Of a stretch of 64,000 nt of DNA, positions 16,040-60,685 are shown in pieces. The stretch comes from Escherichia phage vB_EcoM_WFH, in the sequence record NC_048194.1; one strand, written 5' to 3'. Numbering within the stretch: the first letter of the stretch is position 1; each line of letters starts with the position of its first letter. A program made the translations under genes and the position numbers. The notes under the pieces were generated by a model. That model did no database searches and was not told the origin of the DNA. It saw only the letters and a program-made list of their open reading frames with translations.

Positions 16040-16320
16040 GCGTATAATGACGTATCATCCGTATCAAGTAAGTAGTTGTTTTCAAAAGAATCTTACGGAT
16101 GATACGGATGATACGCGTTGCCGCGATACTTTATAGGAATTCAAATAAATTAATTTAAAATTATATATCTAATTTAATTTTATTTTTTTATAAACTCTTA
16201 TATATGAAAAGTATCCGTATCATCCGTATCATCCGTAGCACACCAGTGATAGCGCGGCTTATACACCGATACGGATAAAAATACGCCTCATTTTATCCGT
16301 ATCATCCGTATCACACTAAT
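16040..16320. repeat. Origin-like element: inverted arrays of the 9-mer ATCCGTATC flanking a 70-bp AT-rich core
   Basis: CGTATCATCCGTATCA (16051-16066), inverted TACGGATGATACGGATGATACG (16094-16115), AT tract 16141-16210, GTATCCGTATCATCCGTATCATCCGTAGC (16211-16239), CGATACGGATA (16268-16278), TTATCCGTATCATCCGTATCAC (16293-16314). Confidence 0.65.
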
Positions 16321-44425: not shown

Positions 44426-44844
44426 GACAATTCCTCTAAATACTTGATGATGTGATGAATAGTGCCCTTCACGATTATCTCACGTTGAACGTCTGCAATA
44501 TTATAACGCTTTAATTCAATCGAAGGGTGGACTAAATAAAACATCTTCTCAGAATCGACTTTAAGCAAAACAAATGATGGGTATTTCCAATCATTCCACG
44601 AAGAAAGAAAGCTGCACTGACCTTTCTCAAATGCATTTCTGAAAGGTGCAGTGGTGGCCCTTGCAGGCCACGATTCAAAGAACTTCATTTCAAGCCAAAA
44701 GCCGCGCCCTTTCCGGTTGGTGCCGATTACGTCCGGCACACCATCACCCGTCATTGATTCGATTCTTTGAAGCTTCAAGATTGATTCTGAATGCTTCTTC
44801 AAAGGCACGAATATGTATTTCTGTTCACGGTTATTTGTTGCCAT
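44422..44844 (-). CDS. VRR-NUC domain nuclease
   Basis: PD-(D/E)xK signature GVPDVIG ... FWLEMK; usual partner of SNF2 helicases in phages. Confidence 0.7.
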   Translation of the reverse strand: MATNNREQKYIFVPLKKHSESILKLQRIESMTGDGVPDVIGTNRKGRGFWLEMKFFESWPARATTAPFRNAFEKGQCSFLSSWNDWKYPSFVLLKVDSEKMFYLVHPSIELKRYNIADVQREIIVKGTIHHIIKYLEELS

Positions 44845-47728
44845 CTGGATACACCTGTTTGATCACGTCGACGATAAACATGTCAATACCTTCAAGCTTG
44901 CGGCCTTTCATCAGAAAGAATGCGCCGTTCCCGACGTTCTCTGCAATGTACTTACCGTATTTCTGGAACTTCTCTGGGCGAATCCTGAAGCGCATTGGCG
45001 AGTCGGTCGAATCGTCCTTGCACATAAGGTCAATGAACTGAGTCTCAAGCTTGTTTCCATACTGGTCAAACTCTGCGTAGCGGCCATCAGCTTGAAGACC
45101 CTTTTTAAGTTTGCCGTGCTTTGTATAAATGCCGCGCTCAAGACGTTTACGGATGCGTGTCGCTTCGTTCTCGTCAGCCAGCACTTTCTTGGTCAACTTG
45201 CCGATTACTATTGCACGCTCGTCATCGCCGACTTCCTTCATCTGGCGTATTGAAGCACCGGAAGTAACGCCAATCAGATAGGGGTCATTATACGCCCAGC
45301 CAAACTTGGTGTGCATCTCTGTAAGGTCGCCGTATTTGACTTCAGCATTGGCCAATGCATCCTTTTGTTTTTGCGTTAAGGTTCCGGCTTCACGCGCTTC
45401 GATGTACTTCATCGCCTTCACCATTCCGTACCCTTTGGCGTTCATTATGCCGCCGATTAGCTTTCCGTTAGCGATGGTCCAGTTCATTGAAGAGTGATCA
45501 GGGTCGATTGGCACATAATCCACGCCTTCCTTTGCAAGTTCACGTAATATCGCAATCGTCTGGTCTTCGTCCTTAGCAGCGCGTAAGCAAGCAGCGGCAA
45601 ATTCCAACGGGTAGTGTCGTTTAAGCCACAAGGTCCAGTAAGTCACGACCGCGTATGACACGGAGTGTGACTTGTTAAAGCCCCATGACCCGAACGTCGC
45701 CATCGCCTGCCAAAGCTTTCTTGCATCCGCTTCCGGTACGCCGTTATTTATTGCGCCTGCAACGAAGTCTTCGCCAAGCTTGTTAAAGTATTCCTCACCC
45801 TTACGACCTGACATCGCCTTACGCACAGCTGACGTTTTCGCCCAGTCGAATGAACCAATCTCTTTAACCACGGCCATGATTTGCTCTTGGTAAAGAAACA
45901 CGCCATAAGTCTCTTTTAAGTACGGCTCAAGCTGCGGCACGTCGTACTCAATCGGCGCACGTCCTGCCGCGCGTTCAATGTATTTCTGGGCCATACCGGA
46001 CGACAACGGGCCAGGTCGGCCAAGTGCTGTCAGGTTATCGATTTTGTTAAAGTTATCAACGTGCACAAAGTTGGTCACTGAGCGTACAGCGTCGCCTTCA
46101 AACTGGAAGATGCCTGACATCTTGTTTTCGTTAAGGATGTCAAGGACGCTTTGGTCATCAAGCTTGATTCCGTACAGCGTTTCAGCATCTATCACGCCAG
46201 TATCAGAAATGATTCCGAGGGTGCGAAGACCCAATGCATCAAGCTTCAAAAGGTTAAGGTATTCGCTGTCAGGCTTATCAATTTGTGCAATCCCTTCCGC
46301 CGTTACCGTACAGTAATCAGAGATTGGGTCATTACAAACGATGATTCCCGCTGCGTGAACGCCAGTGTGGGAAGGGTGAATCTCAAGGTCACCCATGCAT
46401 CGCGCGGCATCGGGATATTTAGCCACAAACTCTTGGCCCGTGGTCGTTGTTGCAAAGGTGTCCTCCAGGCCGTGGCCATAACGGGCGTCACCGGATGAGT
46501 ATTCAAGCAATGCGTTTTTAATGTTGGCCGTTTCGTGATATCCAATGTTGAATTTCTTACCAACCTGAGCCATTACTGAGTTGGCCTTAAGCGTGTTGAT
46601 GTTGCCAAGTTTTGCAACGTTCATTTCGCCGTATTTTTCTTTAAGGTAATCAAAAACCATATAGCGTTTGGTATCCTCAAAGTCAATATCAATATCAGGA
46701 AGGTCTGCGCGGCTTACGTCAATGAATCGGGCAAACAGTAGCTTATACGGGATTGGGTCAACCTCCGTGATGCCGAGGCAATAACAAACCAGTGAACCAG
46801 CCGATGAGCCGCGAGCGGGTCCGACGAGCATTTTTGTTTTTGCGAATCGTACAAGGTCCGCTACCACCAGAAAGTATGAGTCGAAATCTTTCAGCTGAAT
46901 CTGGTGAATCTCTTCGTTGAATCGGTCCTCATATTCCTGAGTCCATTCTTTGATGTGACCTGCCTTAAGGCGGTACTCCATCCCCTCACGAGCAAGCTTT
47001 ACCATGTCACCAGCAAGGTGGATAATCGGTGCCTTGCGCAGCTTCAGGTCAAGCCCAACGATTCCATTTGCAATATCAACCGCATTGGCCGTTGCTTGAT
47101 TCAACTCGTCTTCGGTCAGGATTCCTTTAAGCTGTTTGCGCAAGTCTTCCGCGTCAACGATGCAGTGCGGCTTAACCGTGTCTCGAACTTCCCATGCATA
47201 AGCAAAGTCAACGTGCTCAGGTGAAGGCATGTGGTTGTATCCGGTTAAAACCAGCGGCCTTCCGTTGCTGCGGTGAGCCAATACCTGGCGCTTGGCCAAA
47301 AGGAACGATGATGGGTTGACGTCTATATAATCATAGTCCTCTGGCCGCAGCAGCTCCACGGCCCCGCCACAGAATTTAACGACGCCATCGAGCGCCCCGA
47401 ACTCTGCACGGGTCAGTCCGCCGCGCTGTGTTGCAAGCGTGGTCGCGTTGTAAAAGGATTTCAGGTCAAGCGCCAATATCCAAGCCTTCGGTTTGAATCC
47501 CTTTTTCGGGTCCGCATCAGGGTCAATGATTGGAATCTCCATACCGAACATAGGCTTGATATCATTCTTCTGACATTCCTTTTCCCATCGAACGTGACCC
47601 CATGTATTGTTATCAACTAATGCCGCGACTTCGCAGCCCAACTCTTTGAGCCGTGCTATAATTTCAGGATGCCGTCCATATACTTCTTTGAACGTGTAAC
47701 CGCTGCGAACTCTCAATTGTGGAAACAT
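44831..47728 (-). CDS. dnaE: DNA polymerase III alpha-type (DnaE-like) replicase
   Basis: N-terminal PHP domain; polymerase signature GPARGSSAGSLVCYCLGITEVDP; 965 aa. Confidence 0.9.
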   Translation of the reverse strand: MFPQLRVRSGYTFKEVYGRHPEIIARLKELGCEVAALVDNNTWGHVRWEKECQKNDIKPMFGMEIPIIDPDADPKKGFKPKAWILALDLKSFYNATTLATQRGGLTRAEFGALDGVVKFCGGAVELLRPEDYDYIDVNPSSFLLAKRQVLAHRSNGRPLVLTGYNHMPSPEHVDFAYAWEVRDTVKPHCIVDAEDLRKQLKGILTEDELNQATANAVDIANGIVGLDLKLRKAPIIHLAGDMVKLAREGMEYRLKAGHIKEWTQEYEDRFNEEIHQIQLKDFDSYFLVVADLVRFAKTKMLVGPARGSSAGSLVCYCLGITEVDPIPYKLLFARFIDVSRADLPDIDIDFEDTKRYMVFDYLKEKYGEMNVAKLGNINTLKANSVMAQVGKKFNIGYHETANIKNALLEYSSGDARYGHGLEDTFATTTTGQEFVAKYPDAARCMGDLEIHPSHTGVHAAGIIVCNDPISDYCTVTAEGIAQIDKPDSEYLNLLKLDALGLRTLGIISDTGVIDAETLYGIKLDDQSVLDILNENKMSGIFQFEGDAVRSVTNFVHVDNFNKIDNLTALGRPGPLSSGMAQKYIERAAGRAPIEYDVPQLEPYLKETYGVFLYQEQIMAVVKEIGSFDWAKTSAVRKAMSGRKGEEYFNKLGEDFVAGAINNGVPEADARKLWQAMATFGSWGFNKSHSVSYAVVTYWTLWLKRHYPLEFAAACLRAAKDEDQTIAILRELAKEGVDYVPIDPDHSSMNWTIANGKLIGGIMNAKGYGMVKAMKYIEAREAGTLTQKQKDALANAEVKYGDLTEMHTKFGWAYNDPYLIGVTSGASIRQMKEVGDDERAIVIGKLTKKVLADENEATRIRKRLERGIYTKHGKLKKGLQADGRYAEFDQYGNKLETQFIDLMCKDDSTDSPMRFRIRPEKFQKYGKYIAENVGNGAFFLMKGRKLEGIDMFIVDVIKQVYPDGNK

Positions 47729-48270
47729 TATTTACTCCAGATGTCATATACGCCAATTTGTTGGCAGACTTTGTGCAGTAATATTACGTCGTCTAATGCA
47801 CGGTGTTTCTGTTCATATTTTCCGAAATATAATTCATACAGCTCTTGAAGCTTAACTCTTCGGCCAAAAATAGGCAAGGTTTGCTCGACTGTACAAATGT
47901 TTATTTCTGGAAAATTAACATCACCAAGTGTAAGACCTTCGCGCTGTAGTGCATAATCAAGAATGTTCTTATCGAACGCATGGTTGTGCGCGATAGTTGC
48001 ATCAGTCTTCTTGAAGATTTCTTTTAGCTGCGGAACGAAATTGATGAATGGTGGATTGCACTCAAGGTCTTCATTTGTTAATCCGGTAATCTTTGTGATG
48101 ATTTCTTCAATCACAATTTCAGGATTAATTATGAACTCGAAAGTTTCAAGAATCTCTTTTCCATCCGTCAACAGGCCTGCAAATTCAATAGGGCGCGGCT
48201 GCATCCCAAGCGGCGCTTTCGGGTGCACGGTTAATCCGGTTGTTTCGAAGTCATAAGGGAGAAATAACAC
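47728..48270 (-). CDS. dnaQ: DnaQ-like 3'-5' proofreading exonuclease (DEDDh)
   Basis: Exo I YDFETTGL, Exo II HNHAFDKNIL, Exo III HRALDDV; stop overlaps the dnaE start (TAATG). Confidence 0.85.
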   Translation of the reverse strand: MLFLPYDFETTGLTVHPKAPLGMQPRPIEFAGLLTDGKEILETFEFIINPEIVIEEIITKITGLTNEDLECNPPFINFVPQLKEIFKKTDATIAHNHAFDKNILDYALQREGLTLGDVNFPEINICTVEQTLPIFGRRVKLQELYELYFGKYEQKHRALDDVILLHKVCQQIGVYDIWSK

Positions 48271-48966: not shown

Positions 48967-49650
48967 TTATTTACCAAATGGAATATCAGTACCAGACATA
49001 AAGCGCCATGCGCCCGTAATTAAGATATGGCGAATGAAGTCAGCAATTACTTGCGGCTCAGTCTCCAATCCATTCATCAGCGCCTTTTTCTGGTATTCAG
49101 CAGCATACTCAGGAGTCCAGCCGCGAGTCGCGCAAACAGCATCTTCAATCTGTTTGGACATGCCAGTACCACGTAGCTTGTTAGGACTAATAGAGAATAC
49201 CGTGATCCCGTATTTAGGCGTAAGCTCGTGAGCCATCTGCTTGCTAATCATGAGCGCAGCAGCCTTGGAAGCATTATAACACAAGCTGGACGTCATAGGA
49301 ATATGCGCAGCGTTGGAAACGATGTTGATCACAAAACCTTTGTTGTCAATAAGACTTTTCAGCGCGGCCTGAGTCGTGTTGACGAAAGAGAAGGCGTTGG
49401 TGTGCATAACGCGATTGAACTCTTCGTAGTTAACATCTTCGAACCAGTTGTTGGAGTTGACGCCAGCGCAGTTGATCAAGCCTTCTACGTCGTATTGAGA
49501 GAGAAGCTCTTTCATCTGTTTCGCGTTACGGATGTCATAGCCGTTCTCCAAATCAATACCGACAACTTCATGACCGTAAGCGCCAAGGGTGTCAAAAATG
49601 GATTTACCAAGACCGGAATTGCAGCCAGTTACAACAATTACTTTTTTCAT
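48967..49650 (-). CDS. Short-chain dehydrogenase/reductase (SDR)
   Basis: Cofactor motif VTGCNSGLGKS, NCAG, catalytic Ser ... YNASK. Confidence 0.8.
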   Translation of the reverse strand: MKKVIVVTGCNSGLGKSIFDTLGAYGHEVVGIDLENGYDIRNAKQMKELLSQYDVEGLINCAGVNSNNWFEDVNYEEFNRVMHTNAFSFVNTTQAALKSLIDNKGFVINIVSNAAHIPMTSSLCYNASKAAALMISKQMAHELTPKYGITVFSISPNKLRGTGMSKQIEDAVCATRGWTPEYAAEYQKKALMNGLETEPQVIADFIRHILITGAWRFMSGTDIPFGK

Positions 49651-49715
49651 TTATTTATCCTTTTTGGACTTCGTTTCGATGAGATAAATATAACTCATCG
49701 AAACGCACAAGTAAA

Positions 49716-50588
49716 CTATTTATTGAAATTAATATTATGGGTGTTGACAAGACGTTCACACATGGCGCTGTAAACACCATCATCGTGTATTGAGTCTTCG
49801 TGCTTCAGGCCGCTGATTGCGAAGCGTGTAAGCTTGACAATCTTAAGCTCGAACAGATGCCACATGTGGTAGTCTTCCGGCGTTTTCAACGTCACGCCAT
49901 TAGGGAAAAGCACCTGCATAACCTGACCTACCATCACAGCGTTATCGCCATAGACAGCGTTGCGCTCACGGAAGGTTGCTGCCATCGCATCAAGAATATC
50001 GGCGGCAGTTGCCGGAGATTGTTCAACTTCCACAGCCTTAGTCTCTTCTTGCCCTGTTGCACTTGGATCAATTGCTAATTGTTGCACCACTTCACCTGCC
50101 TTGCAAAGATTAAATGTAAAAGCGATTTTATTTTGAGCAACGGAATTATAATACAATGCTTCATCTTGCATCCGCGCGAGTACGTCTTGTCGGTCGTCGA
50201 ATACATTGATGATTCGATAATCGCCGTGCCGCAATGCGTGCGACAGCCATGCAGATTTCATAATAGTTGATGGACGTTTGTCGCCATAGTCTCTCATCTT
50301 GATTGTAAATTCATCAAAAGGGAAAACATTGTCCAGACGTTCAAAAGTCACTTGTCTGTATTTTTCTGGCCTTGCAGTCCAATATTCAACCGCCTCACCG
50401 CGAAGAGATGCCGACTCTACTGCTGATGCAATGTGAGGATAGAACTGATCATAACCAATACCGCTGTGATAATCATCATAGTCTGACAACGGACCTGCCA
50501 CCTTGATGCGGTCTAAGCGCCAACGGTCATCAAACAGCGTTCCGTCAAGGTCGAATACGTTTAAGATTTCGCTGTTTTTAATGCTCAT
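49716..50588 (-). CDS. HAD-superfamily phosphatase domain fused to an uncharacterised C-terminal domain
   Basis: Motif I FDLDGTL, motif II WTARP, later Lys and FDDRQD; C-terminal about 140 aa unassigned. Confidence 0.6.
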   Translation of the reverse strand: MSIKNSEILNVFDLDGTLFDDRWRLDRIKVAGPLSDYDDYHSGIGYDQFYPHIASAVESASLRGEAVEYWTARPEKYRQVTFERLDNVFPFDEFTIKMRDYGDKRPSTIMKSAWLSHALRHGDYRIINVFDDRQDVLARMQDEALYYNSVAQNKIAFTFNLCKAGEVVQQLAIDPSATGQEETKAVEVEQSPATAADILDAMAATFRERNAVYGDNAVMVGQVMQVLFPNGVTLKTPEDYHMWHLFELKIVKLTRFAISGLKHEDSIHDDGVYSAMCERLVNTHNINFNK

Positions 50589-51388
50589 CCTTTTGATACT
50601 CCATCTTTAGCAACTGGATTGTTGGTGATTGGCATCGCACTCCAAAACTGGATGCGCAACTCTTCTTGCTGTGCCGTGGTATCCATCCAATCACGATACC
50701 AAGGGCAATGGGCTTTACCGTGACGAGGAAATGCGCACTTACCCATACCAATGCATTGCGGCTGCAGTAATGGATTCGCCCAAGGGTGCACCTTGAGGAC
50801 TTCCGCAACCATTGCGCGGAATACTTCTTGATACTCTCCTTGCGTGCGCGTGCACAAGCGGTTTGACGCCATCTGCTGCAGCGTGCGCAAGTTGAACTTT
50901 GCCATGATATGCGTTTGCATATTAGAAGGCAACACGGCACGTGCATCTTGAATCTCTGCGCCAGCCGCGCGAAGCTCTTGATACAAAGCGTCGATAGTCG
51001 CCATCGCATCATCCCACTTCTCTGCCAGTTCAGCTGCCTTCTCGTCATGGCGAGTCCATCCCTTTGGATCATCCTCTGGGTAAGTGAATTTAGCAGGACG
51101 AATCGCATCAAATGCAGACGACTCCTGAGCGCGGCTGGTGCGTTCTTGATATGCGCCTGTGCGTGTGCGTACCATCTGATGGGTCATGTTCTTTGATACA
51201 GCTGTGATATCAAAGATATAGTCCACAAAGTCAAAAGGCGACTTGATTGTATCAAGCATGTAGCGCCAATGCTCTTGCTTCTCTGATTCCGTCATCTCAG
51301 AGACAGGCTTACCAGTCATGCGCGTGTTCTTTGTTTCCAGCAAAAGGTCAAGTGCATCTTGGGTGTATCGAATTAATTCAACTTTCAT
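50585..51388 (-). CDS. ThyX-family (flavin-dependent thymidylate synthase-like) protein with divergent active-site motif and Cys-rich C-terminal extension
   Basis: ThyX-like N-terminus MKVELIRYT; HQMVRTRTGAYQERTSR where canonical ThyX has RHR-x7-S; C-terminal CIGMGKCAFPRHGKAHC. Confidence 0.6.
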   Translation of the reverse strand: MKVELIRYTQDALDLLLETKNTRMTGKPVSEMTESEKQEHWRYMLDTIKSPFDFVDYIFDITAVSKNMTHQMVRTRTGAYQERTSRAQESSAFDAIRPAKFTYPEDDPKGWTRHDEKAAELAEKWDDAMATIDALYQELRAAGAEIQDARAVLPSNMQTHIMAKFNLRTLQQMASNRLCTRTQGEYQEVFRAMVAEVLKVHPWANPLLQPQCIGMGKCAFPRHGKAHCPWYRDWMDTTAQQEELRIQFWSAMPITNNPVAKDGVSKG

Positions 51389-51401
51389 TTTAATTGTCCT
51401 A

Positions 51402-51848
51402 TTAACGGTAATTCACTAGTTGCTGATCACCAGAGAAGGTGCAATGATAAACGAATTGTGCGTTATAAAGCAACTGAAAACTTTTCTTTGGTTCATTATT
51501 AGAACTCATTGATGTAAAGATTTCTGCACCAGAACGGTTTTCACCAATCAGATTGATAAAGCCGCCAGTTGAACGAGGTTGAACGAAAGTGAAACGTTGC
51601 ATCCACGGAGTCCGGTTGACACCTTTTCCGGTGAATCCTTGAATCTGAATATTCAGACCTTCTTGCTCATTCACACCGATGTAAGTGGTAATCTTCGCAC
51701 CAGTCGTTGCTGCGGTCTTACCGTCCATCGCTTCGCAATCGTAAACAGCGATTGAATCGGAAGTACGGATGGCGGCTTCAGTCGCTTCCATATACATGGT
51801 GCCGAGAATAGCAGTTGCGGCAAGCGCGATTCCAGTGATTCGTTTCAT
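51402..51848 (-). CDS. Secreted protein of unknown function
   Basis: N-terminal signal peptide MKRITGIALAATAILGTMYMEA; 148 aa. Confidence 0.5.
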   Translation of the reverse strand: MKRITGIALAATAILGTMYMEATEAAIRTSDSIAVYDCEAMDGKTAATTGAKITTYIGVNEQEGLNIQIQGFTGKGVNRTPWMQRFTFVQPRSTGGFINLIGENRSGAEIFTSMSSNNEPKKSFQLLYNAQFVYHCTFSGDQQLVNYR

Positions 51849-51913
51849 TTTCGTTTCCTCTATGAGTTCTGCTTCAATGATTAAAGTATACGCCCATTGA
51901 AGCAGAAAGCAAA

Positions 51914-52909
51914 TTATTTATTAGCAATATAAGCAAATTTTTGATAGTTATTTGCTTTGATGAGTTTTTCGACTTCAACAAGGTCATGAGCGACGTCATC
52001 AAGCAAGATATTGCGCCAGGTCGCGAATCGACCGACACTAAACACGTTTAAATCCATAGTCAGCTGCAGGAGTAGGGCGTGTCGCAAGTCTTTCGGAATG
52101 TCGACAATCTTGCCATATTTCTGGTCGACCTTTTCAACTTCTTCAAGAGCAATGTCACTCCATGAAAGGCCAAAGGCCGTCAACACTTCGTCGACTTCTG
52201 CGCGCAGCTTCATGTCACGGTAACGAGTGATGCCGCCTGCGGCTTCAACTGCAGCTTCACTCACGCTGACCAAAGGAATTGTTTCAATGATAAGCGTGTC
52301 ACCAGTAATTGATGCGCGGTAAGTTCTGACGGAGTAGTCAGGGAAGTAAATTGTCTGATACAAATCACACTTACGTTTAATCTTAAAGCGGTAAACGCGA
52401 ATGTTTGCTTTATCAAATGAGAAATCAAGCTTTTGATCAATTCCAGCAAGCTTCATCATGACTGGCAGCGGCGACGTGTTGATGATTGGCGTCTCGCTAT
52501 AGCCGCAAAGAGTATCAACCGGAGTATTAAAGAATATGCGGTCACCCAGTTTGTCGACAAGCTGATCATAAAAGTCATCAGGCGCAATATAACGCGTTGC
52601 AGTCTTAAGCTTCATGATTGAACGGCTGCCAAATTGATTGGTGACCTTCATGGAATACATATTGGCAAGGTTGATTGGGCAATGGTCGTGATAGTAGTTG
52701 CCGCGAAAATACACAGCCTTGTCAACTGTCACGGCCTTAAAAGGGATTCCGGTAATACGGCTTACTTCTTCGCCGCGAAAGCGTAGCAGCGCCTTGTGCT
52801 GTTGCGCTCGTTCCCCTGCTTCGTACACAATAGAGTTCGGGAAGTGACACGCGGTGATAAGTCCTGCCAATCCGCCGCCGATAATCATTACAGGTTGTTT
52901 CATGTTCAT
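51914..52909 (-). CDS. FAD/NAD(P)-binding Rossmann-fold flavoprotein (UDP-galactopyranose-mutase-like or GidA/TrmFO-like, unresolved)
   Basis: N-terminal IIGGGLAGL with acidic residue about 20 aa later; C-terminal GRFATWRN resembles a mutase-type motif. Confidence 0.55.
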   Translation of the reverse strand: MNMKQPVMIIGGGLAGLITACHFPNSIVYEAGERAQQHKALLRFRGEEVSRITGIPFKAVTVDKAVYFRGNYYHDHCPINLANMYSMKVTNQFGSRSIMKLKTATRYIAPDDFYDQLVDKLGDRIFFNTPVDTLCGYSETPIINTSPLPVMMKLAGIDQKLDFSFDKANIRVYRFKIKRKCDLYQTIYFPDYSVRTYRASITGDTLIIETIPLVSVSEAAVEAAGGITRYRDMKLRAEVDEVLTAFGLSWSDIALEEVEKVDQKYGKIVDIPKDLRHALLLQLTMDLNVFSVGRFATWRNILLDDVAHDLVEVEKLIKANNYQKFAYIANK

Positions 52910-53042: not shown

Positions 53043-53888
53043 TTATTCCGCTTGATCACCGTCTTCGGCATCTTCGTTGGGTTCAACATCGACAAACTCG
53101 ATGTGGCCCATCTCTTCCAGCTTGCTCAGGTAGGAGCGAACGGAAGCGCCAAACAGTTGATCTTTAACTTTTTCGCCCAGCTCATCGATAGACTGCGCCA
53201 CGCCAACTTCGCCTTCTTTGATCGCCGCCAGAACGCGTCCACGGGTGGAATGCTCTTGCGGCTGGCTCAGGCCATTGCCAGTGTAGATGAAGTGAGTAGC
53301 TTTTGCACGACGTTGACCGTTTGCCTTTTTAGCGGCCTTACGTTCTGCGATGGCTTTGCGACGTTCTTCAGCTTCTTTCTTACGCTGTTCTTTCTGTTGT
53401 TCTGCAGCTTCTTTCGCCGCAATCTTAGCAGCTTCACGCTCTGCCTTGCGTTTCGCTTTAGCTTCTTCTTTGGCCTTCTCTTTTTCGGCCTTCGCTGCAG
53501 CACGGGCTTGATCACGCTCTGCTTTCTTAGCAGCAGCTTGTTCAGCTTTCAGGCGCTTGGCTTCTTCTTTAGCCTTTGCCTTTTCGATTTCTTTTGCTGC
53601 TTTAGCGGCTTCACGCTCTGCTTTCTTAGCAGCAGCCTTTTCTGCACGCTCTTTAGCTTTCTTAGCTGCTTCTTCAGCACGCTTCTGAGCCTTCTCATCA
53701 GCAGCCTGCTTGCGTTTCAGGGCAGCTTCTTCACGCTTGGCTTGTTTTTCCTGCTCACGCTTCTGGCGTTTTTCTTCGGCTTCTTTCTTTTTAGCCAGAC
53801 GTTTTTCTTCAGCCACGCGACGGCGTTCTGCTGCAGCTGCTTGCTTTTCTTCTTTAGATAATACTTTGATTGCTTCGGCCATATTCAC
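53043..53888 (-). CDS. ER/K-rich single-alpha-helix protein with C-terminal winged-helix-like domain
   Basis: About 170 aa of Lys/Glu/Ala/Arg repeats then a globular C-terminus (RVLAAIKEGEVGVAQSIDELGEKV ... YLSKLEEMGHIEF). Confidence 0.6.
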   Translation of the reverse strand: MNMAEAIKVLSKEEKQAAAAERRRVAEEKRLAKKKEAEEKRQKREQEKQAKREEAALKRKQAADEKAQKRAEEAAKKAKERAEKAAAKKAEREAAKAAKEIEKAKAKEEAKRLKAEQAAAKKAERDQARAAAKAEKEKAKEEAKAKRKAEREAAKIAAKEAAEQQKEQRKKEAEERRKAIAERKAAKKANGQRRAKATHFIYTGNGLSQPQEHSTRGRVLAAIKEGEVGVAQSIDELGEKVKDQLFGASVRSYLSKLEEMGHIEFVDVEPNEDAEDGDQAE

Positions 53889-54041: not shown

Positions 54042-55226
54042 TTAACGCGCTTTCAAATCACGGTACACGGTCAGATTCTTCTTAGCGCGGGTGATGGCTG
54101 TGTACATCATCTTGGCATACGGAACGCCGCGCAAGATTTCTTCTAGCACGCACACATTGTCCCACTCGCTGCCTTGCGATTTGTGCACCGTTATGACATA
54201 GCCATAGTCCATGCCTCCAACAGCGCGTTGAGCCTCTTTGCGCACTTCCTGATCAGTAGAGAAGGAAAGAGGATTTATCTTCACCTTTATATCTTTGCCA
54301 TCGGTAAGCGAGCGCAAATTGACATACATGATTTCATTAGACTCGTCTTCATCCCTTTCAAAGTCCGGTACTGGCTCATAACTAATAACAATCCCTTGCT
54401 CGCCATTACAGAATCCTGGACCGTGTTGATTGAATGTGCAAATAACTTTCTCGCCGATTCCTGGCATTGGCGTTATACGTCCGCTCACTTGGCGCAATAA
54501 TGAATTCCATTTATCTTTGGTGCTATTATAAGAGCAAATAATTTGATCATCTTCGCCCATGAATTTCTTCAGTGCGGTAACGCGCGGCGATTCAGCCAAC
54601 ACCTTTACGTCATCGTATTCACGCGGAGGAAGTCGGTTGCCCTGTCGCACGAAGAAGGAAGCGCGGATTATGTTTGACTCTTTCCCCTGCCGCATGATTT
54701 CGGTTAACAGTACGTCAACGGCATCTTCAGTGAAGTAGGCGGCGGCTTTTACCGGAGGGACTTGTCCAATGTCGCCTAATGCCAGGACAGGGATGCGGTG
54801 ATCAAGAAGGCGCTCTGTGTCCCACTCACCGACCATTGAAGCTTCATCAAGGACGACAAGGTGCGGCCTTTCATCAAGCGTTGACTTTCTTGCGAAGATT
54901 GGTTCATTGTCATCGTTAACGCCGCGCACGTTATAGATGAACTGGTGAAGGGTCTTAGCGCCACGACAACCTTTTTGCTTTAATCGGCTGGCGGCCTTTC
55001 CGGTCGGCGCAATATAAATGGCACCGTACTCACCGACACAACGGCGCACAATCTCACGCGCAATAGAGGTTTTACCTGTTCCTGCATAGCCAGCGATGAA
55101 AAACACGCGCTTCGTCGTTTTACCGTCCTGCAATCGCTTGTACCATGCAACGGCCTTTTCGATGGCATCAATCTGTTGCGCGTTGAACTGAATCACTGGC
55201 TCATTATTAAATTCTGGAATGTTCAT
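54042..55226 (-). CDS. dda: Dda / RecD-like SF1B DNA helicase
   Basis: Walker A GYAGTGKTS, Walker B VVLDEASMV, motif V/VI ITVHKSQGSEWDNV. Confidence 0.8.
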   Translation of the reverse strand: MNIPEFNNEPVIQFNAQQIDAIEKAVAWYKRLQDGKTTKRVFFIAGYAGTGKTSIAREIVRRCVGEYGAIYIAPTGKAASRLKQKGCRGAKTLHQFIYNVRGVNDDNEPIFARKSTLDERPHLVVLDEASMVGEWDTERLLDHRIPVLALGDIGQVPPVKAAAYFTEDAVDVLLTEIMRQGKESNIIRASFFVRQGNRLPPREYDDVKVLAESPRVTALKKFMGEDDQIICSYNSTKDKWNSLLRQVSGRITPMPGIGEKVICTFNQHGPGFCNGEQGIVISYEPVPDFERDEDESNEIMYVNLRSLTDGKDIKVKINPLSFSTDQEVRKEAQRAVGGMDYGYVITVHKSQGSEWDNVCVLEEILRGVPYAKMMYTAITRAKKNLTVYRDLKAR

Positions 55227-55552
55227 TATAACTCCACTACGCTTTCAAGGTCCAGATATACTGGAATAAAATGGCAATCTTCTTTTCGTTCAAACATCTC
55301 ACCGTCAACGTGACTGAAGAAAACAGTCGTGTTTGGTATCTTCCACCCTTTCTCGTCGCGCACCAGGTACGCCATGGATTCAACAGGGATGTAAAGCGAT
55401 ACCGGATTTGCGGCAAAGATGAATTTGATTCTGTCTGGTTGACCCAGGAATCGCATAATTGTAAGACTTGAATTCAGTCTTGTATTAAGAAAGGACTCAA
55501 CGATTCCGACGTGTGTCGCACGTTCGCGTTGCTTCGTATCTTTTTCGTTCAT
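55226..55552 (-). CDS. Hypothetical protein
   Basis: 108-aa ORF, stop/start overlap with the helicase. Confidence 0.45.
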   Translation of the reverse strand: MNEKDTKQRERATHVGIVESFLNTRLNSSLTIMRFLGQPDRIKFIFAANPVSLYIPVESMAYLVRDEKGWKIPNTTVFFSHVDGEMFERKEDCHFIPVYLDLESVVEL

Positions 55553-55655
55553 TTCAGGCGACCTTTGTTAGTGCGGAAATATTTTCTGATAGTATAATTG
55601 CAGATATAGTATAAAGCAAAGTAAATCGAAATTGTGAACTAAATGGTAAATATTG

Positions 55656-55683
55656 TTGACTTTGTATCACTCAATATTATACT
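55656..55683 (+). promoter_or_regulatory. sigma70-like promoter for the primase operon
   Basis: TTGACT, 16-nt spacer, TATACT, about 30 nt upstream of RBS AAGGAAAG. Confidence 0.55.
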
Positions 55684-55712
55684 GCAGGTATTGATCACCG
55701 AAGGAAAGAAAG

Positions 55713-56795
55713 ATGGCTAGTTTAAGAGAAGAAGCAAAAATAATCGAAGAGTTTTTGACGGAACTCCAAAGAGGCATTCCAGAAGATGAACGCGTCATGA
55801 CCGTGTTTGCTCCTGAAGCAACAGTGCAGACTGACGAGCGCGGCAAAAAGATTAACAGCAGCTTCTGGCCTAAGCCTTGGAAGCTTGGCAAGCCGCTGAT
55901 GCAACATCAGAACGGTTACGCCTGCATAAGTTCAATGCGTAAGTCTCCCAACCCAAAGACAGGCGAGATGCGATACTGGCGCACGGAATCGGCTTTCGGT
56001 CATGGCATGGCGATGATGGTCGACGACATCGGACACGGTAAAGGGTCCAAAGGCGATTTGGATTTGGAGTTCTTTTTCGAGCGCCTAAAACCAACCGTCA
56101 TTGTCGAGACTTCGCCGAACAACCACCAGCTGTGGTACTTCTTTAAAGACCCGATTGACCATCTTATCCAGTTCAAGGCATTTCTTGGGTCTTTCGTAAA
56201 CATGGTACTCAAGAAGGGCGGCGACAACACGATTAAAGATGTGACGCGCGTTGGCCGTGTTCCTGGGTGTATCAACAACAAACGTGTGACTCACGACGGA
56301 CCTTACAAATATGTCGATGAGAACGGCGACCCGTTCCGCTGCCGACTTGTTCATGCAGACTACTCTTTGCGCTACACAATCGAAGAGATTTGCCAAGCCT
56401 TCGGTTTCCACGTCGTTATGCCGCAAAAGCGTGAAATTCAAATCGACGTTGACGAATACAAATATGACGCTGTTTGGTATAAGATAGCCCAGCAAATCCT
56501 TGCGCGCAATAAGATGGGCGAAGGGTCCGATGGCGATGTGGTTGAAAACATGTCAGGTAAATGCCGCATCATCTGTCCTTGGGGTGAAGAGCACACCAAC
56601 GGCGACCCATACGGCGCTTATTTTCGCGGCCCAATCCCTGGCGCTGAACATGAATTCGTTTTCGGTTGCGCTCACGACTGCCACCGGAAAGGGGAAGGCA
56701 AGAAAGGATGGACCGCTTTTGTTGAAGCAGTAGTTATGCCTTATATTGAGAATCAACTTGATATGATAAATCGTCGCGCAGGTGGCATAAAATAG
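55713..56795 (+). CDS. DNA primase, RepB-prime / primase-polymerase-like, with C-terminal zinc-binding region
   Basis: MMVDDIGHGKG, ETSPNNHQLWYFF, RVGRVPGCINNK; C-terminal CRIICPWGEEH ... FGCAHDCH. Confidence 0.6.
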   Translation: MASLREEAKIIEEFLTELQRGIPEDERVMTVFAPEATVQTDERGKKINSSFWPKPWKLGKPLMQHQNGYACISSMRKSPNPKTGEMRYWRTESAFGHGMAMMVDDIGHGKGSKGDLDLEFFFERLKPTVIVETSPNNHQLWYFFKDPIDHLIQFKAFLGSFVNMVLKKGGDNTIKDVTRVGRVPGCINNKRVTHDGPYKYVDENGDPFRCRLVHADYSLRYTIEEICQAFGFHVVMPQKREIQIDVDEYKYDAVWYKIAQQILARNKMGEGSDGDVVENMSGKCRIICPWGEEHTNGDPYGAYFRGPIPGAEHEFVFGCAHDCHRKGEGKKGWTAFVEAVVMPYIENQLDMINRRAGGIK

Positions 56796-56853
56796 TTTGC
56801 TTTTATTTTTCTAGCAACTATAATCATTTTATGAACTGAAGCAGAGGTGATTT

Positions 56854-57000
56854 ATGCAAAGCGAAGAATTGAACATCGAGCTTGAAGGTCTGTTAAATTC
56901 GTTAGAACCTAAGCACGTAGAGCTTCCCACCCTTGAAGGTGTCATGGCTCACCACCAATCGGCTGCGGCCAAACACTACTCTGAATTTGTTAAGGAATAA
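56854..57000 (+). CDS. Small hypothetical protein (48 aa), not in the ORF track
   Basis: RBS AGAGGTG 6 nt before the ATG. Confidence 0.35.
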   Translation: MQSEELNIELEGLLNSLEPKHVELPTLEGVMAHHQSAAAKHYSEFVKE

Positions 57001-57001
57001 A

Positions 57002-57292
57002 ATGAACGAACCAAAAATGATGACCACTGAAGAAGCACAAAAACTTCGCGTGGAGAACGAGCTGAAGCTTGTCAATGAAATTCTTCCTCTGTTTAAAGGC
57101 TATGCGGTTGAAGAAGTCGTTGGCGCAATCCTTAATGTGTCGACTCACGTGGCGATGAATCTGAATGCAGAGCGTTTCAATACTTTGCTGACGATCAACA
57201 ACTTTACTGTCAGTGCGACATTTACCGTTGAGCCAGTCAATTTTGAAGAGGCTGCAGCCGCGATTCAACAACAGAGAAATCAAGAGGTGTAG
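57002..57292 (+). CDS. Hypothetical protein
   Basis: ORF 56933-57292 trimmed to the ATG after AAGGAA. Confidence 0.5.
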   Translation: MNEPKMMTTEEAQKLRVENELKLVNEILPLFKGYAVEEVVGAILNVSTHVAMNLNAERFNTLLTINNFTVSATFTVEPVNFEEAAAAIQQQRNQEV

Positions 57293-57293
57293 C

Positions 57294-57557
57294 ATTGGCG
57301 CTTTCCGCAACGAGTTCATTTGGAACGTTACAAGCAGTCTTTCGACTTGTCCTAACTGTACGAGCGATGTTATCAAGGTGCGGCAGCATCGCAATGCAGA
57401 GGAAGGTGCCTGGGAGGACGGCGACCTTGTAGAGTGCCAGTGCTGCTCTCACGAAGGCGTGGTGGAGCTTTACGCCGGAGAAGGTTGCCCACCAGCAGAC
57501 CGTTCAGCACGCGTTGAATGGGATGCGACAGACTCCATCGGTGATACTCAACAGTAA
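57294..57557 (+). CDS. Cys-rich small protein, putative zinc finger; start uncertain
   Basis: CPNC ... CQCC; no canonical start adjacent to the RBS. Confidence 0.3.
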   Translation: MGAFRNEFIWNVTSSLSTCPNCTSDVIKVRQHRNAEEGAWEDGDLVECQCCSHEGVVELYAGEGCPPADRSARVEWDATDSIGDTQQ

Positions 57558-57676
57558 ATTTAGGTATAGATACATATGAAAGCCGTAAAGAAATACACAT
57601 TAATCATTTCCCTTGTAATCATCCTGGGGCTATTATATGTATTGGATATGGCATATTATTTGGCAGGGGTGAGTAA

Positions 57677-57967
57677 ATGAATATTGTAATTCTTTATGGT
57701 GAGAATATCAGCGATGACGACATCGAAGTTGCCGTTGATGTTTACGGTATCGATGAGGTGAAACGTGTTGAAGAAATTAATGGCTCAAATCTTAATGAGA
57801 TTGCCAAAGAAGCTGGTTGCCCTTCTGAAGAGATTCTGGTGGTTACTAACGATGACCTGTCTTCTATGGATTGTTTGCGCCGCATCTTCACCGATTGCCA
57901 ATACCTTCATTCTGTTCAGTCAGTAAACAAATTGAGAAAGGCATACGCTGACCAATTTCCTTGCTGA
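57677..57967 (+). CDS. Hypothetical acidic protein
   Basis: 96-aa ORF followed by a terminator. Confidence 0.5.
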   Translation: MNIVILYGENISDDDIEVAVDVYGIDEVKRVEEINGSNLNEIAKEAGCPSEEILVVTNDDLSSMDCLRRIFTDCQYLHSVQSVNKLRKAYADQFPC

Positions 57968-58018
57968 TAGTTCACCAGTTATATTGCTTTAAACTGAGTT
58001 TTACTATATTAATATACA

Positions 58019-58045
58019 ACGCCAGATTTCTGGCGTTTATTTACC
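58019..58045 (+). terminator. Rho-independent terminator
   Basis: ACGCCAGA-TT-TCTGGCGT followed by TTATTT. Confidence 0.65.
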
Positions 58046-58103
58046 GCACCCTGAAAGGATATATCCATGCAACAATATAACAAAGCCGTATCAGGAGGAT
58101 TAA

Positions 58104-59774
58104 ATGTCAATTGAACATGACAATCTTCCAGAGGATACAGGTGATGAATTTGGTGCAATCTTTGACGAAATTCAAGACGCTGGTGTTTCAGAAGAAATGC
58201 AAGCGGCAGAGCAGCAAGGCACCAGAGCTAAAATCAGCCTACAGCACAAGGCTGTTGAGAAAGATGCAGAGCGCATGGAATGCTACGGTGAAGAAGACTT
58301 GGTTGAAAGAGCACGTTTGCTCGCCTCACTTCAGGTAATCAAGTTCCCTCATTATAAACCGACGAAAGATGATTTTGTTCTTCAGGCGGACCGGACGAGT
58401 GACATGAACCGTTATGCGGTTTTCGACGCGTTGTTTGATAAGGGAAGCGGCATCGTCCCATTCCCTCACAAAGATACTTTTCGTGGACGCTTAGTCGACC
58501 ATCGCGGCGAAACATTCACCGACCGGACGTTGGAAGTCACAGAGATAGTTGCCGCTGTCGATGCAGCAGGCCTGTCCAACCCAAACTCACGTCAGGTCGC
58601 TCAATCCTATAAGGAATGGGCCATGCGTTATCAGCGCGACGACCTGATGGACTTCTTCTACAAGAAGCTTCCTGAATGGGACGGTACTGCGCGCATTGAG
58701 AAATACCTTATCGAGCTATTCCGACCGTTCGATACAGAGTTAAACCGACAAATCGGTGTGTATTTTTGGCTATCGCTCTATAACCGCCTGACCAACCCTG
58801 GCTGTCAAGCGCCAATCTCCATCGCGCTCATCGGCGGCCAGAACGCAGGGAAGAGTTATTTTAGTAAGCTGCTTTGCGAAGCTATTATGAACGACCGCCA
58901 CGCAACACCGATTCCGTTGAACTTGGCCGCGCAGAACTTCAACCCGTTCTTGCGAGCTATTACGGGTCGCTCAATTATCGCGAACGTTGGCGAGATGACG
59001 GGCTTTAAAAAGGCCGACATCGAAAACATGAAGGCATTCCTGACTAAGACGGAAGATGACCTGGACTTCAAATTTGAAGACACGCAGGTCAAACCACGCC
59101 AGTGGATTGCTATCATGGACGGCAACGAATACGCAGGCATGCAGCGTGACGATACGGGCAACCGTCGTGTGTATCCTATCTTTGTTGGCCAACTCGCCGA
59201 CAAGGACGGGCAACCGAACTGGTCAAAAGACTTCCAAGCTGACCTTTCCACTTTGAAAGAAGACGTTTGGCAACTGATGGCTGAGTGTGCTGCGTGGATG
59301 GAGAAGCACGGCGAAGCAGGTTACAACGCGTTTGTCGGTGAAACGTCTCGCATGCTTACTGAGTTCAGTAAGAACGAAATGGAACGCGCTCGCGGCGTTA
59401 TCCGTGATGAGATGGTCGACAACGACCTTGTTGAAGTCGTCATTACCGCGCCTTATGACCGACATCACAGCGGACGCTGGCACATCACCAGTGGTGCAAT
59501 CGCTATGGGATTCAGAGCTAAGTGCGGCAAGTCGCCTTTCTCACGTACCCTTGCGCCGCACATGTCGAAGCTTGGATTTGAGCCTGCAACCTATCGCAAC
59601 CAGCGCGGCTACTTTACGCCGCTGATTAAGAATGAAGCAGGGGAATACATTTCTGACTTGATGACTATCTTAGCGTATCTTATTCGCGACGAGTCTGACC
59701 CTGAAGATATTGAATTCTTGAAGAAGGTTATTGAACGCAAACGTTCTTTAGGAAGAGATAAGGATGAATTCTGA
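58104..59774 (+). CDS. VirE / D5-like P-loop NTPase (putative replicative helicase or primase partner)
   Basis: Walker A IGGQNAGKS; strong RBS CAGGAGGA. Confidence 0.5.
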   Translation: MSIEHDNLPEDTGDEFGAIFDEIQDAGVSEEMQAAEQQGTRAKISLQHKAVEKDAERMECYGEEDLVERARLLASLQVIKFPHYKPTKDDFVLQADRTSDMNRYAVFDALFDKGSGIVPFPHKDTFRGRLVDHRGETFTDRTLEVTEIVAAVDAAGLSNPNSRQVAQSYKEWAMRYQRDDLMDFFYKKLPEWDGTARIEKYLIELFRPFDTELNRQIGVYFWLSLYNRLTNPGCQAPISIALIGGQNAGKSYFSKLLCEAIMNDRHATPIPLNLAAQNFNPFLRAITGRSIIANVGEMTGFKKADIENMKAFLTKTEDDLDFKFEDTQVKPRQWIAIMDGNEYAGMQRDDTGNRRVYPIFVGQLADKDGQPNWSKDFQADLSTLKEDVWQLMAECAAWMEKHGEAGYNAFVGETSRMLTEFSKNEMERARGVIRDEMVDNDLVEVVITAPYDRHHSGRWHITSGAIAMGFRAKCGKSPFSRTLAPHMSKLGFEPATYRNQRGYFTPLIKNEAGEYISDLMTILAYLIRDESDPEDIEFLKKVIERKRSLGRDKDEF

Positions 59775-60421
59775 TGAATAAAGCAATCAACATCGCTAAA
59801 TTCTTTCAACATCTCGGTGAACTGAACAAAGAGAGTGACGTTCACGGAGAAGAAATGAACCGGATGATTTCAACCGTGTTGCGTGGTTTTGGTTACGATA
59901 AGGACTCAATCACCTGTAAGCGCACGAAGCTTGTCGATGAGACATACCTTTACTACGTTGAATTGCGCGTAGGCAAAGATTTGATGATCATCGACCCTAA
60001 ATTGGAAGGGGCGCACTGTTTTGGCGCTCACCCTCGTGCGAGTGAATTCAAGGGTCGCGGTCGCAACCGACTCCAGAAGCTTGATGATGCAGGCGACCTG
60101 AACATCTCGATGTTCCTCAAAGAGTTCCTTGCTCTGCCGAAGGTTGCATCTTCAACGGGCCGTGATGACCTGTGCAAGATTGGATTCAGAACTAAAGATT
60201 TGCGCAATGCGCTACGCAAGAAGGGATTTGTGCCTTCTTATGATAACGTCGCCGCGCTGATGGCTTCCATGGAGGAAGCTGAAGCAATGGACAAGGTGCG
60301 CGGCTATTTCCTGAATACAGGCTACACAATGTATGAGTGGCACACCAAAGGATTGACGGTCGCCGACTTCATCTATTCATTAGAGCAGAAGTATGTACGC
60401 AATATGCAGGCCACAGGATAA
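59774..60421 (+). CDS. Hypothetical protein
   Basis: 215-aa ORF, ATGA overlap. Confidence 0.5.
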   Translation: MNKAINIAKFFQHLGELNKESDVHGEEMNRMISTVLRGFGYDKDSITCKRTKLVDETYLYYVELRVGKDLMIIDPKLEGAHCFGAHPRASEFKGRGRNRLQKLDDAGDLNISMFLKEFLALPKVASSTGRDDLCKIGFRTKDLRNALRKKGFVPSYDNVAALMASMEEAEAMDKVRGYFLNTGYTMYEWHTKGLTVADFIYSLEQKYVRNMQATG

Positions 60422-60460
60422 TTATCATCAAAATATTTGCTTTTCTGACGAGGTGATATT

Positions 60461-60685
60461 ATGATTAATTTAGACAGGATTGAGTTAGCACTTAGTACCT
60501 TAATCAAATATTACCAGTTTGCTTTTAAGGCTAGTTTATTTGGCTTGTTCAATCCTCATCAAGCAGCAAAGGCGCGAAGCAATGCCAACCGCCTGCGCTG
60601 CACTGGTATAGTCATCCACGACCGGATATTGACAGAGGGTAGATTCAGCCATGAATACACAAGGGAGAATAACAAAGCAACGTAG
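60461..60685 (+). CDS. Hypothetical small protein
   Basis: RBS GAGGTGA. Confidence 0.45.
   Translation: MINLDRIELALSTLIKYYQFAFKASLFGLFNPHQAAKARSNANRLRCTGIVIHDRILTEGRFSHEYTRENNKAT

Follow-up and report, generated by a model that had tools for sequence, protein, structure and literature searches.

A RepB′-family primase and a VapE-type helicase of Escherichia phage vB_EcoM_WFH as probable halves of a split primase-helicase

Introduction

Escherichia phage vB_EcoM_WFH carries, at positions 55713-59774 of a 64,000-nucleotide stretch of record NC_048194.1 (hereafter the window, numbered from its first letter), a primase gene and a helicase-like NTPase gene on the same strand, which raises the question of whether the two products work together in starting replication of this phage and, if so, at which sites. 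An earlier note, made from the sequence alone, had described them as an initiation pair (a RepB-prime-type primase with a zinc ribbon and a separate NTPase of the VirE/D5 type) that would act with a repeat element elsewhere in the window through a plasmid-like mechanism. Profile searches placed both proteins in the families proposed for them, i.e., the RepB′ primases and the VapE/VirE-D5 group of superfamily 3. Judging from sequence comparison and structure models, we consider it moderately probable that the two genes are the two halves of a phage primase-helicase, whose helicase half would load itself at repeat-flanked origins.

The identities of the two genes are correct and already known. 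The two proteins have deposited Wifcevirus counterparts at 99-100% identity, the Mansfield record cites the RepB primase InterPro domain for the primase gene, and other records use the names "DNA primase", "virulence-associated protein E" and "primase superfamily helicase". Moreover, a 2025 analysis of the Pbunavirus phage Banzai named the homologous helicase as a candidate self-loading initiator and the homologous gene as primase (PMC12390725). That paper proposed origins from GC skew alone and contains no description of the repeat/AT-rich elements treated here. The papers searched and read gave no description of the split/fusion relationship, of the C-H-C-(C/H) module as defined below, or of two-element candidate origins across genera.

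Results

The primase gene (55713-56795, plus strand) has exactly the coordinates that the earlier note had given it and encodes 360 amino acids, comprising a RepB′-family archaeo-eukaryotic primase domain followed by a C-terminal Cys/His module. Residues 40-237 (55830-56423), the catalytic domain by Pfam extent, matched RepB_primase (PF16793, of the PrimPol-PV1 supergroup) over profile positions 4-181 of 186 (E 4.1e-36, 125 bits; the curated cut-off of this model is 24.3 bits), and the full-length protein matched phrog_4861, annotated "DNA primase" (E 4e-198). The domain carries the motifs DD104-105, ETSPNNHQ139, GGD171 and R179/R182; across 81 homologues, D104-D105 (motif I), N137 and Q139 (motif II), D171 (motif III) and R179/R182 (the conserved Arg of motif IV) were invariant. 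Motif II reads ETSPxNxQxW, and a Gln in place of His in this motif typifies RepB′-like enzymes (PMC5862659).

An AlphaFold2 model of the primase built from these 81 homologues reached a predicted local distance difference test score (pLDDT) of 92. When compared with the PDB using Foldseek, it matched the primase domain of cyanophage S-2L PrimPol best (6zp9, E 6e-8), followed by RSF1010 RepB′ (3h20, E 1.6e-6; 3h25, E 1.7e-5), all three with a probability of 1.0. In line with this, the authors of the S-2L PrimPol study named RepB′ as the closest relative of their enzyme (PMC8065100). Since similarity to the RepB′ sequence itself was marginal in direct and profile searches (E 0.06-0.3), the family assignment rests on the Pfam profile together with the fold. 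No Pfam match to the PriCT models was found in the primase, and its model has, in the corresponding place, a three-stranded Cys/His module flanked by helices; lacking the PriCT-1 helix bundle, the protein is thus a member of the RepB′ catalytic family and not an orthologue of full-length RepB′. On profile and model evidence, the product is a RepB′-family primase with intact catalytic motifs, and the primase-polymerase motifs that the earlier note had read from the sequence proved to be invariant ones.

The C-terminal Cys/His cluster that was described as a zinc ribbon is real, yet its residues are conserved only in part, and in a pattern other than the CxxC...CxxC of a ribbon. Within the predicted zinc-binding module (residues 266-330; 56508-56702), where conservation counts mark C288, H294, C319 and H324 as ligand candidates, C288, H294, C319 and H321 were present in 81/81 homologues, while position 324 is Cys in 67/81 and His in the other 14/81, this phage included; C284 and C323 are lineage-specific and not conserved. 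H321 is invariant in this phage clade but is lost in more distant relatives, which keep the Cys at position 324, and we therefore take the likely ligand set to be C-x5-H-x24-C-x4-(C/H). The ligand columns are conserved across the wider family, including fusion proteins described below. The module is also the most conserved part of the primase (mean identity 74%, as opposed to 59% for the catalytic domain), and AlphaFold2 predicts for it three strands and a short helix.

Searches with the module alone and with a 17-sequence profile of it returned nothing meaningful in Pfam or among PDB sequences, so that homology to the zinc fingers of UL52, PrimPol or DnaG could not be shown. A profile of the module retrieved only 31 clusters among 1.84 billion representative proteins. 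In two proteins from the search of representatives, P0260 (662 aa) and P0269 (703 aa), a C-H-C-C module of related type (CPWGxxHxNGDP...FYCQHATC) is joined to an AAA_25 ATPase domain and not to VapE. AAA_25 is the RepA-type, RecA-like helicase family, and these fusions therefore indicate that the Cys/His module pairs with unrelated ATPase or helicase families.

The ligand order is that of the UL52-like CHC2 finger, known from herpesvirus UL52 and human PrimPol. The human PrimPol finger, C419-x6-H426-x19-C446-x4-C451, belongs to a zinc-finger domain that is needed for priming and not for extension (PMC4027207). Like that finger, the module of the window primase has the same ligand order with similar spacing, sits C-terminal to the primase domain and is predicted to form a small beta-sheet with a helix. 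However, neither UL52 nor PrimPol appeared among the top 50 fold matches of the primase model, and there was no sequence or profile similarity to them. The likeness is one of pattern only, and we do not place the module as a member of that group.

The second gene (58104-59774, plus strand; coordinates again exact in the earlier note) encodes a 556-residue VapE/VirE-type superfamily 3 helicase, a candidate self-loading initiator-helicase. Residues 189-407 (58668-59324) matched Pfam VapE-like (PF05272; E 1.6e-28, 100 bits against a cut-off of 25 bits), and the protein matched phrog_4630 with an E-value of 3e-255. This ATPase core contains Walker A (GGQNAGKS, 244-251), Walker B (E297), the sensor N341 and the Arg finger R354/R355. 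In 69 homologues, G244, Q246, G249, K250, E297, N341, R354 and R355 were invariant, and S251 was kept in at least 90%. The sole match in a search of PDB sequences was the SaPI1 Rep of a Staphylococcus aureus pathogenicity island (SaPI; 7pds, E 4e-11). This protein was also the best Foldseek match of the AlphaFold2 model (pLDDT 90.6), at E 7.7e-17 over ~480 columns with a template modeling (TM) score of 0.62 relative to the target; further fold matches were NrS-1 (6k9e, E 4e-8), the PrimPol of African swine fever virus (ASFV) and poxvirus D5/E5 (1e-6), and SaPI5 PriRep5. The Walker-A NTPase of the VirE/D5 type that had been proposed is, on these alignments and models, a VapE/D5-type superfamily 3 AAA+ helicase with a complete ATPase motif set.

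Could the protein instead be a DNA-binding NTPase with some other role? The historical label "virulence-associated protein E", the fact that most members of the VapE family are uncharacterised, and an NCBIfam search with zero matches for the helicase as for the primase, so that no model there names it, would all leave room for this. Against it stand the conservation of the full superfamily 3 motif set, top fold matches whose helicase activity has been demonstrated by experiment (SaPI1 Rep, NrS-1 and poxvirus D5/E5), and the occurrence of VapE-type helicases fused to primase domains in other phages. We regard such a role as very improbable.

Residues 408-556 of the helicase had no Pfam match. 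In the model, the order of its secondary structure elements (helix 436-448, strand 459-462, helices 463-474 and 480-489, strands 493-497 and 500-504) fits that of a winged helix, and we predict a winged-helix DNA-binding domain at residues 431-510 (59394-59633) followed by a variable C-terminal tail. The alignment to 7pds extends across this C-terminal region, and SaPI Rep binds its own repeats via a C-terminal winged helix (PMC9371898). Identity between homologues is 24% in the predicted winged-helix region versus 57% in the ATPase; only the two extreme termini, the N-terminal 60 residues and the C-terminal tail, are lower.

Evidence that the two proteins belong together came from natural fusions. 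The module profile retrieved single-chain proteins of 856-963 aa that combine RepB_primase, the module and a VapE/DUF5906 helicase: P0249 (946 aa) has RepB_primase at 80-248, the Cys/His module at 280-372 and VapE at 580-749, and P0254, P0257 and P0262 have the same order. In P0267, the module is joined directly to the VapE helicase, without a primase domain. In addition, the model of the 360-aa primase aligned end-to-end with the N-terminal third of phage primase-VirE fusions of 759-899 aa (352 columns, TM 0.61). Because other phages carry RepB′, the Cys/His module and VapE in one protein, the pair in the window can be read as its split version. This matches the architecture described for primases of mobile elements, i.e., a primase domain, a Zn-binding or PriCT domain, a VirE helicase and a winged helix (PMC5862659).

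Among phage records, 355 contained 80% or more of the primase and 350 the same share of the helicase, and the primase gene comes before the helicase gene in all of Wifcevirus, Kylevirus, Pbunavirus and Myosmarvirus. By sequence comparison, the pair is a core syntenic module of PB1-like phages, found in about 350 genomes (Pbunavirus, Kylevirus, Myosmarvirus and others). PB1-like phages also have genes for a DnaE-type polymerase with its proofreading exonuclease, for a ligase and for a Dda-like helicase. The fusion proteins, the end-to-end fold alignment and the co-occurrence in the same order argue that primase and helicase work together, and support the earlier proposal of a pair.

The fold match to S-2L PrimPol invites another reading of the primase, namely that it is mainly a polymerase, or a repriming or damage-tolerance enzyme (like PrimPol and NrS-1), and not a replicative primase: S-2L PrimPol, which heads its structural matches, acts as primase and polymerase in replication (PMC8065100), and primer extension in vitro is common among enzymes of the superfamily (PMC5862659). 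The phage, however, has its own DnaE-type DNA polymerase III alpha (44831-47728, minus strand; Pfam DNA_pol3_alpha E 3e-63, DNA_pol3_finger E 1e-37) and a proofreading exonuclease of the DnaQ/RNase T type (47728-48270, minus strand; Pfam RNase_T E 1e-21). Given this separate polymerase, the window primase need not replicate the genome, unlike NrS-1 and S-2L. No DnaG-type primase was found in the profile searches made or in the public records consulted, leaving the RepB′-family protein as the sole evident primase. The conserved Cys/His module, moreover, is the kind of accessory domain that is needed for priming and not for extension (PMC4027207). Taken together, these points make a mainly polymerase or repriming role improbable.

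Of note, the polymerase is of the bacterial type, with PHP, NTPase and finger domains and the exonuclease encoded separately, and a DnaE-type replicase is uncommon for a phage. Neither a clamp nor a clamp loader was seen among the genes checked. The phage further encodes an SNF2 protein and carries a gene called DNA ligase in related records; the ligase-annotated gene had no Pfam match in the window scan.

The repeat element of the earlier note, at 16040-16320, is genuine. This element, hereafter element B, is a candidate origin built of the 9-bp repeat ATCCGTATC in opposite orientations around an AT-rich core (~16128-16212), with two to three copies on each side. Of the eight exact ATCCGTATC copies that the window contains, seven fall within 16057-16312, whereas 0.36 copies would be expected over its full length. 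Element B also has perfect 22-nt inverted arms and a single-strand fold z-score of -8, and lies ~40 kb from the primase and helicase genes, just upstream of the head protease/capsid operon. A related element, element A, straddles window position 1, such that the window begins inside its AT-rich core. Its right half occupies 1-133 (repeat-like copies at 66-82 and 108-133), and its left half is found in OZ035737 (58,650-58,889), with exact repeats ~56 and ~112 nt upstream of window position 1. On the circular map, element A lies ~8.3 kb downstream of the helicase gene and upstream of the first rightward gene. The inverted arms and hairpins of these candidate origin elements show nothing about priming, such as the sequence-specific priming with dNTPs at ssiA/ssiB-type hairpins that belongs to the RepB′ family.

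Each of the four genera checked has two elements that share a genus-specific repeat around an AT-rich core. In Pantoea phage Kyle (Kylevirus), the repeat GGTTATT marks both elements and is clustered only at 17.5-18 kb and 69.4-69.8 kb, plus a terminal-repeat copy at 1-500. JG024 (Pbunavirus), whose shared repeat is a 49-nt inverted-repeat arm containing a hairpin, has an inverted-repeat/AT-rich element at the site syntenic with element B and a paralogous one beyond a terminator, 0.25-0.5 kb past the helicase stop codon. Similarly, the repeat of Erwinia phage TropicalSun (Myosmarvirus), AAAAAACGAAAAGTAA, occurs both at the syntenic site and 0.33-0.47 kb past the end of the helicase gene. The distance from helicase gene to element A is 8.3 kb in Wifcevirus and 5.7 kb in Kylevirus, with many small genes in the interval. 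In JG024 and TropicalSun, three genes annotated "hypothetical protein" (PJG24_078, and gp87 and gp14, respectively) overlap the inverted-repeat/AT-rich elements and are probably spurious gene calls. The heptamer TGCCGCG, a conserved motif of the elements considered as a shared recognition site of the primase, was rejected, being significantly enriched in JG024 only (P 1e-4; Wifcevirus P 0.08, Kyle P 0.13).

These comparisons support, circumstantially, the elements as putative origins read by the pair. SaPI origins likewise consist of short opposed repeats around an AT-rich core in a pri-rep-ori arrangement (PMC9371898), and the origin of pRN1 lies just downstream of its replication gene (PMC4234260). 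The low conservation of the predicted winged helix would fit a domain that co-varies with the repeats.

Several observations weigh against this reading. A search of 55400-60600, flanking both genes, gave neither significant repeats nor an origin-like element, and the nearest repeat elements are those ~8.3 kb and ~40 kb away. The co-variation argument draws on four genera only, and both the winged-helix fold of the helicase and zinc binding by the module of the primase are model-based predictions. The minima of cumulative GC skew on which the Banzai authors relied fall in the replication-gene region, the main one inside the polymerase gene, and not at the elements; in the window, the skew tracks transcription and is therefore unusable as independent evidence on origins.

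The positions of the elements point the same way. Both precede rightward operons and are followed by -10-like, promoter-like sequences, and they could therefore be regulatory. The AT-rich core of element A is also the site at which, in WFH and Kyle, the left end of the ~3.7-kb terminal repeat has been reported (position 1 of the Kyle record is position 69,566, within the AT-rich core of the Kyle element), which suggests for element A a role in genome-end formation or packaging, instead of or besides that of an origin. On this evidence, and given the distance between the elements and the helicase gene in the window, the pair may be the fork primase and replicative helicase only, with initiation occurring via transcription, recombination or host factors and with the elements serving as sites for a genus-specific regulator that controls transcription of the operons downstream, or as packaging or genome-end signals.

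We regard this as a possible but somewhat unlikely account. Pbunavirus phages retain both elements despite reported headful packaging without a terminal repeat (PMC12390725), which argues against a purely packaging role, and no genome end lies at element B. An AT-rich core of ~80-100 bp with opposed repeats around it typifies unwinding elements and not operators, an element directly follows the helicase gene in two of the genera, and the roles of promoter and origin are not mutually exclusive.

The reading of the pair as a self-loading primase-helicase gains its closest parallel from the SaPI Pri/Rep/ori systems of S. aureus (Rep1, 7pds; PriRep5, 7ola). There, too, the helicase is a separate VapE-type superfamily 3 enzyme whose gene follows that of the primase; Rep1 is the best match of the window helicase in both sequence and fold and has the C-terminal winged helix that is predicted in the latter; and the origin has opposed repeats flanking an AT-rich core (PMC9371898), as do elements A and B. 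In JG024 and TropicalSun, even the position of the element, right after the helicase gene, is that of the SaPI ori. In contrast to the SaPI arrangement, the elements of the window phage do not adjoin the helicase gene (~8.3 kb and ~40 kb away), there are two per genome, and the repeats are of 9 bp, versus 5-6 bp. SaPI Rep1 and the window helicase share ~17% identity in structural alignment, and a SaPI is a satellite, whereas this phage, a virulent myovirus of 68 kb, encodes a DnaE-type polymerase of its own.

The likeness to a plasmid system is narrower. The catalytic domain of RSF1010 RepB′ (IncQ) belongs to the same Pfam family and fold as that of the window primase, likewise has Gln for His in motif II, and aligns with it at ETSPxNYQxW. 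The RSF1010 oriV, too, contains repeats plus an AT-rich region. Unlike in RSF1010, however, the helix-bundle PriCT-1 domain is replaced by the Cys/His module, and the helicase is a superfamily 3 VapE-type enzyme where RSF1010 has the RecA-type RepA. No RepC-like separate initiator, as in RSF1010, was identified in the phage. Among 72,556 plasmid records, the primase clade had one weak hit (25% identity). The term "plasmid-like", which the earlier note had applied to the initiation mechanism, is thus a loose one: the helicase-initiator resembles SaPI Rep and D5 and not RSF1010 RepA or RepC, and the primase clade is almost absent from plasmids.

The fused primase-helicases (S-2L PrimPol, NrS-1, pRN1 ORF904, poxvirus D5/E5 and P4 alpha) have the same order of modules (PMC5862659). 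Among PDB folds, the window primase matches the S-2L primase domain best, the NrS-1, ASFV and D5/E5 helicases match the window helicase, and direct fusion homologues of both window proteins exist. The repeats that phage P4 alpha binds are likewise divided between two sites, ori and crr. Here, in contrast, the modules lie in two genes with 1.3 kb of variable small ORFs between them.

That interval (~1.3 kb) holds six small ORFs where the earlier note had counted three genes. In the annotation of Bas100 they lie at 56854-57000, 57002-57292, 57294-57557, 57576-57680, 57677-57967 and 57961-58080, all on the plus strand and all open in the window, with products of 48, 96, 87, 34, 96 and 39 aa, respectively; the same interval has five annotated ORFs in Mansfield. 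Their number differs between phages, from 1 in JG024 to 7 in Kyle and 15 in TropicalSun. These intervening small genes are accessory and outside the core machinery.

The 87-aa ORF (57294-57557) matched phrog_4446 and, weakly, a zinc-ribbon model; its product contains CxxC...CxCC. It begins with ATT here and with ATG in Mansfield and Bas100, which could reflect a change of start codon, use of an upstream in-frame GTG (57213) or a sequencing error. The 96-aa ORF at 57677-57967 corresponds to CPT_Mansfield_081 of record MK903282, which is labelled "DNA primase" with a note citing HHpred likeness to 3H25_A. A search of PDB sequences gave no RepB′ match for this ORF, and the Mansfield primase note is therefore probably attached to the wrong gene.

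Both the primase and the helicase ORF sit within one rightward operon, and the stop codon of the helicase is overlapped by the next gene. Over the 8 kb around the pair, identity is 99.9% to Wifcevirus WFH (OZ035737) and 93-98% to 25 further Wifcevirus genomes, and the gene coordinates in the window are those of the WFC record, which makes the window the opening 64 kb of a genome of this kind. In Pbunavirus, orthologues of the pair (for example, PBanzai_075 and PBanzai_077) share 64% identity with the primase and 44% with the helicase; a single small ORF separates them there, where Wifcevirus has six, and a candidate origin element directly follows the helicase gene. A consensus scan found a sigma-70-like promoter (TTGACT-16-TATACT, plus strand) at 55656-55683 with 10/12 matches, a pattern match alone. 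It lies upstream of the primase, in a 160-bp divergent intergenic region shared with the leftward operon of a Dda-like helicase.

The latter gene (54042-55226, minus strand) encodes a Dda/RecD-like superfamily 1B helicase (Pfam AAA_30 and UvrD_C_2; phrog_325, Dda-like helicase, E 2.5e-99), which is an accessory helicase outside the primase-helicase pair. Next to the replication genes, on the minus strand at 48967-52909, lie a FabG-like reductase, a polynucleotide kinase/phosphatase, ThyX and, at 51914-52909, a gene annotated as UDP-galactopyranose mutase-like in Mansfield and without a Pfam match here; this set could hint at nucleotide or DNA modification chemistry. A 281-aa protein (53043-53888, minus strand), called "TolA protein" in some records, consists mostly of Lys/Ala/Glu-rich repeats and matched phrog_4765 (unknown function) and no Pfam family.

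Discussion

If the two genes indeed encode the halves of a primase-helicase, initiation may proceed as follows. The helicase would assemble as a hexamer and load itself at an origin, the candidates being element B (16040-16320) and element A, where its variable winged helix would recognise the genus-specific opposed repeats beside the AT-rich core, as SaPI Rep proteins do. It would then melt the AT-rich core and translocate 3′-5′, and the primase would make primers on the exposed single strands. In this step, the Cys/His module may bind the template and the initiating nucleotide, in the manner of the helix bundle of RepB′ and pRN1 or the zinc finger of PrimPol and UL52. The primers would then be extended by the DnaE-like polymerase.

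More tentatively, the two paralogous elements may be the origins of PB1-like phages, read by a fast-evolving winged helix. In the genera that have a terminal repeat, the left genome end would then form inside the AT-rich core of one of them, which would link initiation with genome-end formation. Such a two-origin arrangement, which we put forward as a possibility and hold to be rather less probable than not, would have one element ancestrally right after the helicase gene and the other upstream of the head protease operon.

Unusually fast replication has been reported for Wifcevirus phages (PMC11990801), and Pbunavirus phages are among the most used in Pseudomonas phage therapy. The comparison of four genera singles out, in each genome, two non-coding elements that may be origins and, in the helicase, residues 431-556 as the part that may read them, and the Cys/His module of the primase, conserved above the catalytic domain, offers a defined target for mutagenesis.

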